A stretch of DNA of 64,000 nt. Origin: Octopus vulgaris (taxonomy: Eukaryota). How positions within the stretch are numbered: position 1 is the first letter of the stretch; each line of letters starts with the position of its first letter. The stretch covers positions 51,088,001 to 51,152,000 of the forward strand of contig OX597830.1 of assembly GCA_951406725.2 (NCBI GenBank). The letters run 5' to 3'. Below the pieces are notes generated by a model. It made no database searches, was not told the DNA's origin, and worked only from the letters and a program-made list of their open reading frames with translations. Made by a program: the position numbers and the translations under genes. Positions 57,100-64,000 of the stretch are shown here, one piece after another.

Positions 57100-57577
57100 A
57101 AGGCGGCAAGCTGGCAGAAACGTTAGCACGCCGAGCGAAATGCTTAGCGGTGTTTCGTCTGCCGTTACGTTCTGAGTTCAAATTCCACCGAGGTTCGACT
57201 TTGGCTTTCATCATTTTGGGGTCGATTAAATAAGTACCAGTTACGCACTGGCGTCGATATAATCTACTTAATCCGTTTGTCTGTCTTTGTCCTCTCTGTG
57301 TTTAGCCCCTTGTGGGTAGTAAAGAAATAAGTATTTCGTCTGCTATTACGGTCTGAGTTCAAATTCCGCCGAGGTCGACTTTGTCATTCATCCTTTCGGG
57401 ATCGATAAATTAAGTACCGGTTGCGTACTGGAGTCGATCTAATCGACTGGCCCTCTCCTTTTGGGATCGATAAATTAAGCACCAGTTGGGCACTGGGGTC
57501 GATGTAATCGACTTAATCCGTTTGTCTGTCCTTGTTTGTCCCCTCTATGTTTAGCCCCTTGTGGGCAATAAAGAAAT
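57100..57577 (+). mobile_element. SINE family A multimer (three core units) within a single TSD
   Basis: AAGA(C/T)AGGTTTCTTTTT at 57083-57099 and 57578-57594. Confidence 0.88.
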
Positions 57578-57674
57578 AAGATAGGTTTCTTTTTTGCGTA
57601 GGACCGGGCGGGTGATCGCATCAAGCGTAACAGTAGGTACAGATACAGAGGTTCGGAGTGCCTGAACGGTGGCA

Positions 57675-60570: not shown

Positions 60571-60689
60571 CTTCATCATTACTATTTAAGGCGGCGAAAC
60601 TGAAAGCAGAATGTCTTTTAAATAAACAGGTTGCGATGGGTAAATTAGTTCAGCTGTGCTGCTTGGAAGCTCCAATAAGGACACATGGT

Positions 60690-61135
60690 GAATCCACCGA
60701 ACAACTGCTGTCTTGACGTGTTCCCAAAAATGTACCGAGAATGATAAAAATTAAGCATCCAGTGTTTGGAGTGATCACTAGTGATGGCGACGTTATGCCT
60801 CCAGTCATCTTCCCACACAGCCTCAGACCCAATACGGAAGGTTACATCAAGTGCCTGGAGGAGGTAGTGCTGACCTGGGTCAAAAAGGTGGCTGCTAGAA
60901 GACCCTCCGTCTAGCAACAAGACTCTGCACCATGCCACACGAGCAGGAGAACCCAGCCATGGTTGTCAGACAATTTCTGCGACCACATCACCACCTAACT
61001 CCCCAGACTGCAACCCTCTCGGTTATTATTTGTAGAGCAAAGTTGAGCGAGAGACCAACAAAACGCCTTGTAATGGCTGCATTCACCAAGTTAAACAAGT
61101 AGACCGCCCAGATGAGTTGCAGGAGATTCCAAAAT
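60690..61135 (+). mobile_element. Tc1/mariner (maT/DD37D-like) transposase fragment
   Basis: KHPVFGVITSDGDVMPPVIF..YIKCLEEVVLTWVKKV..*QQDSAPCHTSRRTQPWLSDNF / PNSPDCNPLGYYL*SKVE, with stops and a frameshift. Confidence 0.85.
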
Positions 61136-61231: not shown

Positions 61232-62400
61232 CTGTGTGTCTTTGTCTGTGTACCTGTTTTATTTGTGTGTGAGTGTATGAATGGGTGTTAGAAACATACC
61301 TGAACTTATTCAAAAGTTTATTTACCTCACAATATATTATGCATAACATATATTTTATTCAAGCCTGGAGGCCGATCGCACACATCAGTAAATAGTTTTT
61401 GCTGACTTTCTTAAAACGAAGCTATAGCTTCCGATGTAATTTTGAGTTGAATGCATTCATCTCCCAGAAGATCCCCAATACGACAAGGCTTTCTTTACAC
61501 CTATTGCCTAAAGCTAGCACTTTCTCCATCGCAAAATGCAACGACAGGTGAAATATACTTTACAGGTGAAATATACCAAAAAAAGAAATTTAAGACTATA
61601 AAAATTTGTTTGGTTTAATACTCAGCTTAACGTGCATGATATATCACACACACGTACGTATGCATATATTCATTCACATGTATTTTTATATATACATATA
61701 TACATGCTTGTATATAAACACACATATTTGTTTGTCTGTATGTATGAGTATAGTACTATAAAGTCTCAGTAGAATAGGTATAGGGAAAAAGATATAAAAA
61801 ATATACAATAATTTTTAGAATATTAACTTAGATTTACTGTTATCGTGACTTTAATCCTGACGACATCACTAACGTAAAATATTTGCCCCGAAGTAAAGTC
61901 GTGTGACTTGAAACTTCGGTATCATTTTAACAGAAAAAAGATTTTTCTGTATTTTCTTTGCATATGCCTTGCATATATACTGCAAAAAAAAATGGTTGGT
62001 TCCTACGAAGGAAGTAAACTATCATTACATTAGCTTAGGTAGTAACGCTTTCAATCGTTACATGCTGAAATTATCATAATCGTTTTTTGGGGTTTTATTT
62101 TTAATTTTATACTTGTATTTTCAAGGTGCAGAATACTTAGAAGACATCTTCTTCTGCACCTGAAGAGAATTCAGTGCCTGAATATTTAACACCGTTTAAA
62201 CATATTTTAAAGAAACGACAACATCATTACCGATTTCTGGTTGCTAATGTGAACGTCTTTGCGCATTTCTATAGATGTATGATGAATTACTACATGTGTC
62301 TATGTGCGCTTGCATATATATGTGTGTGTGTGCGTCTGTATATGTATATACATGTTTATACACACACATACATATATATAAATGCATGCATGTATGCATG

Positions 62401-62530
<130 letters not shown>

Positions 62531-62726
62531 AACACATAAATGCAATAATAATGGGCTTTAGACATTCATTTATTTACTTATTTACTTAATAAAAATTTAG
62601 CAATTAAGGACAACTTCTTAATAAGGAAAACTTAACAAGAAATTATCGGGTAGATAGCGTCGTTGATGTTGATCAGTTGGTTGCCCGGCTTTGACGATGT
62701 AGGGTCGTTTATTTATGATACGTCCA

Positions 62727-62773
62727 GACTTGCTGATGAATACATAGGTATGAAATCACAGGTGATACAAGTC
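62727..62773 (+). ncRNA. Type I hammerhead ribozyme, copy 1
   Basis: GACTTG-CTGATGA-ATAC-atag-GTAT-GAAA-TCAC-ag-GTGA-TA-CAAGTC: stem I 6 bp, stem II 4 bp, stem III 4 bp plus A-U, intact core. Predicted cleavage after AUA at 62767. Confidence 0.85.
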
Positions 62774-63185
62774 CATATTTTAAATGTCTTACTTTGAAAA
62801 ATTGCATTCGGTGGGATTAGTAAAATTTTTGGTAGAAATGACTAATTTTGTCCCTCTTAGCGTGTGGCATGTATGTATAATAATGCCCTCTATATATAAA
62901 TTTAATATGTTCAATGAGAAAGAATTATTTTCGAAATTTTTTCTCTTATGAGGTTTTTCACGCTATCTACCCGATAATTTCTTGTTAAGTTTTCCTTATT
63001 AAGAAGTTGTCCTTAATTGCTAAATTTTTATTCCGAAAAAACTTTTCCTTTCCCGAAATGCAATTCGTAAAAGTCTGACATTTACCGGATGTAATATATG
63101 TAAACTAACCCATGTGCGTCGTTGATGTTGATCAGTTGGCTGCCCGGCTTTGACGATGTAGGGTCGTTTATTTATGATACGTCCA

Positions 63186-63232
63186 GACTTGCTGATGAAT
63201 ACAGAGGTATGAAATCATAGGTGATACAAGTC
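63186..63232 (+). ncRNA. Type I hammerhead ribozyme, copy 2
   Basis: GACTTG-CTGATGA-ATAC-agag-GTAT-GAAA-TCAT-ag-GTGA-TA-CAAGTC. Predicted cleavage after 63226. Confidence 0.85.
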
Positions 63233-63478
63233 CATATTTTAAATGTCTTACTTTGAAAAATTGCATTCGGTGGGATTAGTAAAATGTTTGGTAGAAATGA
63301 CTAATTTTGTCCCTCTTAGCGTGTGGCATGTATGTATAATAATGCCCTCTATATATAAATTTAATATGTTCAATGAGAAAGAATTATTTTCGAAATTTTT
63401 TCTCTTATGAGGTTTTTCACGCTATCTACCCGATAATTTCTTGTTAAGTTTTCCTTATTAAGAAGTTGTCCTTAATTG

Positions 63479-63532
<54 letters not shown>

Positions 63533-64000
63533 ATCAGCAGTTTTGTTCAGTACGCGCATTGGATATAATTGCATTGCATTGATTGAACTTTAGATACCCC
63601 AATACAGATCCACTTCAATTGTTTTTATTACATGTTATTCTGTGTTCTGAATGCTTTATTTTAATAGATGTTGCTCACTACAAGTTATGAATGATTCTTT
63701 TATGACTTCATTGCTTTCAGGCTTATCTTAAGGCATTTTCGCGCCCGACATCATAAAATACGTCTGAATAAACGTTGCCGGACAGCTAATAAAAACTCGG
63801 ACATTCCTTTGAAAATACTTTTCATTTTTAACCTTCTGTATATTACGCACTAGTGATTTTGGTCTTTAAATTTTGGGAAAAAATGCGGATAATACTCGAT
63901 GATTTACGGTATATATATATATATATATATATACAAACATTTATATGTTCATTTTTCAAGATTCTTGATGCCAATTCATGTGTTGAAACAGATATTGTAT

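Follow-up and report, generated by a model that had tools for sequence, protein, structure and literature searches.

Metazoan non-LTR retrozymes were described in 2020 by Cervera and de la Pena (PMC7229834), the nearest mollusc case in that paper being a mussel family of 350-390 bp, and animal retrozymes have been tied to Penelope-like elements (PLEs), as non-autonomous elements, in a 2026 preprint by Li, Clavereau and Pollet (10.64898/2026.07.22.740005). Further features by which non-LTR retrozymes are recognised are the lack of a primer-binding site or polypurine tract and, when present, a target-site duplication of more than 4 bp. In vitro, only one of nine Xenopus retrozyme dimers was cleaved (10.64898/2026.07.22.740005), and the bias of EN+ PLEs for (TA)n targets has been linked to the CX2-5CxxC linker (PMC8557442). 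For cephalopods, the giant squid genome paper counts 235 'hammerhead 1' loci, given without analysis in the part of that paper drawn on here (PMC6962438). Literature searches, whose scope stopped short of Dfam, Repbase and the supplements of PMC7229834 and of the 2026 preprint, yielded no octopus or cephalopod retrozyme. The retrozyme class is already known, and the element itself is no surprise.

The window analysed here is the whole stretch of 64,000 nucleotides at positions 51,088,001 to 51,152,000 of contig OX597830.1 from Octopus vulgaris. The copy that it contains is built of 1.8 units arranged head to tail and an inverted arm of 73 bp, and it terminates in (TA)n. Its features, in window coordinates, are the following.

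62400..62526, no strand: left (TA)n tract, from the sequence
62588..62660, minus strand: inverted arm, truncated at its 5' end, that covers unit positions 304-376 and is 100% identical over 73 nt to 62960-63032
62657..63115, plus strand: first complete 459-bp unit, from self-comparison of the window
62714..62777, plus strand: hammerhead 1 together with the stem I extension UAUG/CAUA beyond a 9-nt bulge, from the sequence
62727..62773, plus strand: hammerhead 1 (type I), with a private G>U in loop II and the cut predicted after 62767
62768..63226, plus strand: predicted cut-to-cut monomer, 459 nt, 33% GC, longest ATG frame 55 codons
63116..63481, plus strand: second, partial unit (positions 1-366), 4 mismatches to 62657-63022, stopping at the 3' terminus T2
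63186..63232, plus strand: hammerhead 2 (type I), with a private C>U next to stem III and the cut predicted after 63226
63352..63367 (also about 62893-62908), plus strand: AU-rich 3' terminus T1, at about unit position 246, no end of the window copy
63362..63481, plus strand: 'tail' of about 120 nt from T1 to T2, from the comparison of ends across the family
63480..63529, no strand: (TA)n target tract adjoining the 3' end

The direct repeat (62657-63022 against 63116-63481) extends over 366 nt with 4 mismatches at a period of 459, and the inverted arm meets the main arm head-to-head with an overlap of 4 nt (-4, from the coordinates). A preliminary description of this DNA had reported two tandem hammerheads 459 nt apart; their positions are exact, but the repeat is far longer than was stated, and the inverted arm had been overlooked. 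The unit start at 62657 is the window copy's own 5' truncation point and no family boundary, because the 5' ends of the 130 arms compared across the family are scattered over the unit. About 60 nt of non-TA sequence part the left (TA)n tract from the inverted arm, which is unusual within the family. That the 459-nt monomer lacks an ORF, as had been proposed, agrees with its longest ATG frame of 55 codons and with the 7-13 stops per round in each frame of the circularised molecule; the latter also rule out an endless ORF around the circle, to be considered because 459 is divisible by 3.

The traits of a non-LTR retrozyme found here are a hammerhead in each unit, no coding capacity, a GC content of 33% (below 50%) and a monomer that is self-paired by computation; the unit size of 457-495 nt lies just over the 2020 range (150-450) and within the 2026 range (51-972 bp). 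At the DNA level the assignment to this class, as a non-LTR retrozyme and ORF-less Penelope-like element, can be regarded as firm.

Elsewhere in the window, a Pfam scan of 30 of the 86 long frames gave no matches. Two pyrimidine-rich stretches of the plus strand that end in AG, 62095-62125 and 63700-63722, resemble splice acceptors, and if these are real the element would sit in sense orientation in an intron. Several near-copies of a short interspersed repeat (D6, D8, D11) occupy 57150-57600, with related sequence at other loci; we take this repeat to resemble cephalopod SINEs. At 60640-61120, about 480 bp of higher GC follow an (ATT)n run and hold a 106-codon minus-strand frame with no Pfam match, and this region may be a decayed DNA-transposon fragment.

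All core elements of the hammerhead that had been listed are indeed present, i.e. stem I GACUUG/CAAGUC, CUGAUGA, stem II AUAC/GUAU with its 4-nt loop, GAAA and AUA, as is the extension of stem I past the 9-nt bulge, in which 62714-62717 pair with 62774-62777. Stem III is short, as described, but its size has to be corrected: it has 4 bp (AUCA/UGAU), and its loop has 4 nt. The supposed change of a C-G to a U-G pair in stem III does not hold, since this pair would close a 2-nt loop and is possible only in a dimer duplex, which is predicted at -11.2 kcal/mol for the family form and is weaker, at -8.4 kcal/mol, for the window pair. Nor can the two differences between the ribozymes, described as fold-preserving, be taken as a sign of selection: both are private mutations, for among 100 listed core matches 98 show AGAG in loop II and CAC in stem III, the other two being the window copies. 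The two differences are drift, without covariation, and no evidence of selection, and the window copy, mutated beside stem III, is slightly atypical. An Rfam search of the window returned no hammerhead match, whether at the gathering score or with E relaxed to 10.

The predicted energies speak against easy cleavage: the active hammerhead fold, at -5.0 kcal/mol, is outdone by an alternative fold (-11.3 and -9.4 kcal/mol) that pairs stem III with the core and with the 5' strand of stem I, and the predicted probability of stem III itself is 0.00-0.03. The alternative fold may be an off state of the circle, and such pairing with the core may explain the invariance of stem III, dimerisation not being required. 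Folded as a circle, the window monomer reaches a computed -123.9 kcal/mol (z -7.7 against 60 dinucleotide shuffles; minus strand z -4.6), with 68% of the monomer paired.

When the unit was searched against the genome (2.8 Gb, 227 contigs), 1855 candidates came up, and 40 of them were scored. The 35-nt ribozyme core has 116 exact matches, and a pattern in which stem II is freed has 660 matches genome-wide, representing a wider family; the reversed-pattern control gave 0 in both cases. This wider family comprises at least 8 subfamilies with distinct stems I and II, its complete monomers measure 457-495 nt, and its subfamilies are 66-95% identical to the window monomer. In each of the 12 listed monomers of the subfamily A type, the ribozymes are spaced 456-460 nt apart. 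When 22 motifs from the subfamilies are aligned, 97.4% of the cells are paired, compared with 22-44% in slid controls, and two-sided changes occur at 12 of the 19 pairs (5 of 6 in stem I, 3 of 4 in stem II and 4 of 5 in an extra hairpin, helix 3, which covaries and extends stem II in the long-stem-II subfamilies). The weight of this covariation lies in the slid control and in the number of distinct pair types, because related sequences can beat a shuffle control. Stem-loop III is without covariation, its invariance in the 22-motif alignment being built into the search pattern. A search that leaves stem III free has 539 matches; of the 100 listed, 81 keep it exactly and the others show scattered changes (counted by eye), while stem I occurs in about ten forms. 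The long helices of the monomer covary as well, with two-sided changes at 30 of 122 consensus pairs in 11 monomers that are 66-100% identical to that of the window, the structure having been predicted from the same alignment. The checks on copy number and covariation that had been proposed thus turned out in favour of the family, with hundreds of copies and with core and stem pairing conserved across subfamilies. The covariation of stems I and II across subfamilies shows that the ribozyme fold is kept, and the hammerhead is under selection.

Contigs from 4 of 24 listed sequencing runs (three guessed to be RNA, one of uncertain kind) match the family, mostly its sister subfamilies, with strand, ends and circularity unreadable; one 333-nt contig of run X2, the kind of which is uncertain, spans the ribozyme region, again with unreadable strand and circularity. 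These contigs carry no weight in the argument. Runs of four other organisms (X17-X20) contain 0.24-0.28 of the sampled unit words, a mere hint that relatives may carry the family.

A second, older hammerhead family (L103:3260-3880, minus strand; L232-L243) is unrelated in sequence to the first and has a long stem II, a palindromic loop III and a partial tandem near TA. It has 206 candidates of 74-86% identity; the core was seen in 5 of 12 loci, and 11 of the 12 hold no PLE frame, the frame at the twelfth belonging to a neighbour. Possibly this is another retrozyme family.

The insertions of the first family share a characteristic anatomy; the loci were selected for an intact core or best similarity, so that young copies are over-represented. 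Altogether 79 distinct insertions provide 130 arms of 25-1082 nt, the longest corresponding to 2.4 units. Arm ends fall at T1 (about unit position 246) or T2 (about 366) in 120 of the 130 arms, and TA-rich sequence adjoins 105 of these 120 ends. Two ribozymes occur in 10 of the 130 arms, and the window copy has two; among the 100 listed of the 116 exact matches there is no triple of same-strand ribozymes, and no long master array was seen. Over all subfamilies, 64 head-to-head pairs were found, of which 50 are classifiable, i.e. have both ends at T1 or T2. Mixed T1/T2 ends are present in 45 of these 50 (subfamilies A, A2 and B; binomial p 2e-9), and the window copy (T2/T2) is among the five that violate the rule. 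Five of the 14 unclassified pairs, from subfamilies C and D, for which the script leaves T2 undefined, look mixed; by a narrower count, 35 of 36 simple subfamily A pairs are mixed. Overlaps or gaps at the junction are no larger than 8 nt in 30 of 37 mixed pairs, and the tail measures about 120 nt in subfamily A and 105 nt in B. Different subfamilies have inserted independently into one (TA)n tract (L014:1501-2918, L060, L200).

Candidate helpers are provided by two PLE families of the same genome, drawn from a GIY-YIG search with 6136 candidates, 150 of them scored. Neptune-1 (L091-L100, e.g. L094:746-5455) has a 4.7-kb unit whose 781-aa frame combines RT and GIY-YIG with a CxxxxCxxC linker. 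Upstream of it lies a frame of 300-480 codons that falls into no clear Pfam family; the element further has a pseudo-LTR carrying a variant minimal hammerhead (U3-A8 core variant), and (TA)n flanks. Neptune-2 (L161-L190) is very abundant and has many 775-aa frames with 99% identity over the 168 aa searched, a 4271-bp period with three tandem copies at G000:C1:27841626-27850671, and a hammerhead core, CCGAAGA, which departs from the usual one. Both families target (TA)n. Each has two 3' ends, separated by about 37 nt in Neptune-1 and by 26-30 nt in Neptune-2, and the inverted pairs carry the tail on one side alone (2 of 2 and 7 of 7, respectively, paired by eye). Both are young, intact and recently active and obey the end rule of the retrozyme; they may be labelled Neptune-type by the linker motif (PMC8557442) and the C-terminal EN rather than by a tree.

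A blastn comparison of the unit with the PLE ends in 50 GIY-YIG loci (of the 6136 candidates; two Neptune-2 members, L101 and L108, were included, and L161-L190 lay outside the sample) gave no similar 3' end, also for the two Neptune families, its matches being neighbouring retrozyme copies and one 35-nt match. Neither a 9-10-nt word common to the unit and the PLE end at L088 nor a small hairpin within the tail of Neptune-1 was rated above chance level. Because no sampled autonomous PLE end resembles the unit, it is solely the insertion pattern that points to a PLE partner, and the tail of 105-120 nt, against 26-38 nt in both Neptune families, speaks against a full match to PLE anatomy.

The lack of a sequence match to the sampled PLE ends would also be expected if the units were moved by a machine other than that of a PLE, be it a LINE reverse transcriptase, LINEs being abundant in cephalopods (PMC8967140), or DNA-level amplification in microsatellites. 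We consider this very improbable, since the one-sided tail, the inversion with outward 3' ends, the partial tandems and the (TA)n target together make up the signature of PLEs (PMC8557442), which recurs in the PLEs of the same genome. No more credit can be given to the view that the units are mere pseudo-LTR (pLTR) ends of a 5'-truncated, unsampled autonomous PLE. They have the anatomy of PLE ends, matches to pLTRs occur among Xenopus retrozymes, with 24 of 57 families matching Repbase TEs (10.64898/2026.07.22.740005), and an ancient origin of the unit from a pLTR is likely. However, the units are preceded by a further unit, by an inverted arm or by target DNA; when 110 family loci, a set without L191-L230, were searched with a PLE protein, two matched (L014, L150), both beyond the 3' end and none upstream; and the whole unit is kept in subfamilies that are only 66% alike, so that this view is largely refuted.

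Polymorphism within the family bears on the nature of the template. At 21 polymorphic sites, mismatches amount to 7/276 between tandem copies and 9/456 between arms, compared with 40546/104059 between insertions, and both arms belong to one subfamily in 63 of 64 pairs, a 75-nt arm being the exception. Arms and tandem copies of an insertion are thus of one haplotype. There is no pile-up of 5' ends at the predicted cut site (2 of 122 encounters, against a background of 3.3%), and the ends of a linear monomer were accordingly rejected as 5' boundaries; a single copy genome-wide (L023) starts at the cut site from a TA tract. Template jumping by target-primed reverse transcriptases is known and would favour a linear cleaved monomer as the template: on reaching its 5' end, the RT would jump to the 3' end of that molecule or of a sister molecule and thereby make tandems. 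The copy that begins at the cut site would suit this model, as would stem I, which can hold both ends together without ligation, but with 2 of 122 5' ends at the cut site the jump would need an efficiency of about 100%, and the spacings in the 12 subfamily A-type monomers listed are uniform. We therefore regard a linear monomer as improbable.

Two simpler routes to the inverted arms were also tried and rejected: fold-back synthesis on the first cDNA, as a general source of these arms, fits only 19 of 37 mixed pairs, and 34 of the 37 lie beyond the limits of twin priming on a single monomer circle if no strand is displaced (3 fit). With both routes set aside, what is required is either two primings that involve strand displacement or two RNAs of a common source. 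The insertions fit a template that is continuous and regenerates its length, the simplest being a circle.

One haplotype and the lack of a cut-site stop would likewise be expected from a near-identical uncleaved dimer transcript, and on this basis the same element with the same PLE helper may be thought to use, as template, an uncleaved linear read-through of a tandem copy, the hammerhead cutting rarely or trimming the 5' end. That the active fold is not the predicted minimum favours such a template, and the hammerheads of PLEs cleave poorly in vitro (PMC4209133). On the other hand, 5' truncation would shorten the element in each generation, and its length must be regenerated, because only 10 of 130 arms have two ribozymes and the longest arm has 2.4 units; moreover, the 100 listed exact matches contain no long array, and the covariation demonstrates that the fold is kept. 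On balance, uncleaved read-through seems unlikely.

The reading that we prefer, with a probability of roughly 0.6 for the full mechanism, is that of a non-autonomous hammerhead retroelement whose ribozymes would make a circle and which a Neptune-type PLE would mobilise in trans. Copies having two ribozymes on one strand would be transcribed, the hammerheads would excise a 457-495-nt monomer, and stem I would keep its ends together for ligation into a compact circle, within which the ribozyme would refold to an off state. The RT/GIY-YIG protein of the PLE would cut a (TA)n tract, reverse transcription would be primed at one of the two fixed AU-rich sites, T1 or T2, and the RT would continue across the ligated junction over a length that varies (25-1082 nt), which would produce partial tandems. 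Often both target ends would prime, one at T1 and the other at T2, on RNA with a single haplotype, and the resulting cDNAs would join head-to-head. At the level of DNA, the basis of this reading consists of the family, the covariation, the termini, the target, one haplotype per insertion, no cut-site stop, and intact young PLEs with the same end rule; from it we infer transcription, cleavage, the circle, the identity of the enzyme and the two-primer chemistry. Mobilisation in trans by a Penelope-like RT, put forward in the preliminary description, is supported by the ORF-less dispersed family, the covariation, the compact fold and the PLE insertion pattern.

More tentatively, and as a possibility that we would rather doubt than assert, one circle held by a PLE RT-endonuclease dimer might be primed twice, from both cut (TA)n ends, at the two fixed AU-rich sites; both arms would then be templated by one RNA, or by a pair joined via the invariant, self-complementary stem-loop III. 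If true, double priming would explain the pseudo-LTRs, the inversions and the one-sided tail of all PLEs, the tail would be a priming offset and not a resolution scar, and the 459-nt element would be a minimal substrate for proof, with no detectable sequence in common with its helper. The role of hammerheads in PLEs and the origin of partial tandems, inversions and tails are left open in PMC8557442, as far as the part drawn on here extends. As a test case the octopus element offers a short, young, ORF-less RNA with at least 8 covarying subfamilies, beside two intact PLE proteins; because the young retrozyme coexists with these proteins and they obey the same end rule, cleavage, circularisation and two-site priming are amenable to in vitro tests using small parts.

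With the retrozymes of PMC7229834, the element has in common a canonical type I hammerhead per repeat, the lack of an ORF, low GC, a self-paired predicted RNA and co-occurrence with PLEs. It differs from them in the size of the unit, 457-495 nt here against circles of 170-400 nt there, and in its dispersed partial tandems of at most 2.4 units, in contrast to arrays of up to 62 units; the head-to-head inversions, the pair of fixed 3' ends and the (TA)n targets of the octopus family have no counterpart in the part of PMC7229834 drawn on here, whereas cleavage and circles were demonstrated in that work and the present family is known from its DNA sequence. The 2026 preprint (10.64898/2026.07.22.740005) came to the same conclusion on the helper, and its definition, 'two consecutive units with a hammerhead', covers the window element. 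Its 35 species include no mollusc, and the text, in the part drawn on here, is without the terms octopus, cephalopod and mollus. It relies on co-occurrence and pLTR similarity, whereas the argument here relies on insertion anatomy, no pLTR similarity having been found.

The Neptune-clade EN+ PLEs described by Craig et al. in 2021 (PMC8557442) share with the octopus family the 5' truncation, the partial tandems, the inverted 5'-truncated copy, the one-sided tail, the hammerhead in the repeat and the bias for (TA)n, but the element described here has no ORF, a tail of 105-120 nt instead of 30-40 nt, and a canonical hammerhead with a 4-bp stem III. Along these lines, the minimal hammerheads of PLEs, in which helix III is absent and helix I has 4-5 bp, are not matched by the window element, with a helix III of 4 bp and a helix I of 6-7 bp; what is common to them is the type I topology and a self-complementary loop III that permits a dimer (PMC4209133). 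The canonical form thus sets the window element apart from the minimal hammerheads carried by the PLEs of the very same genome.
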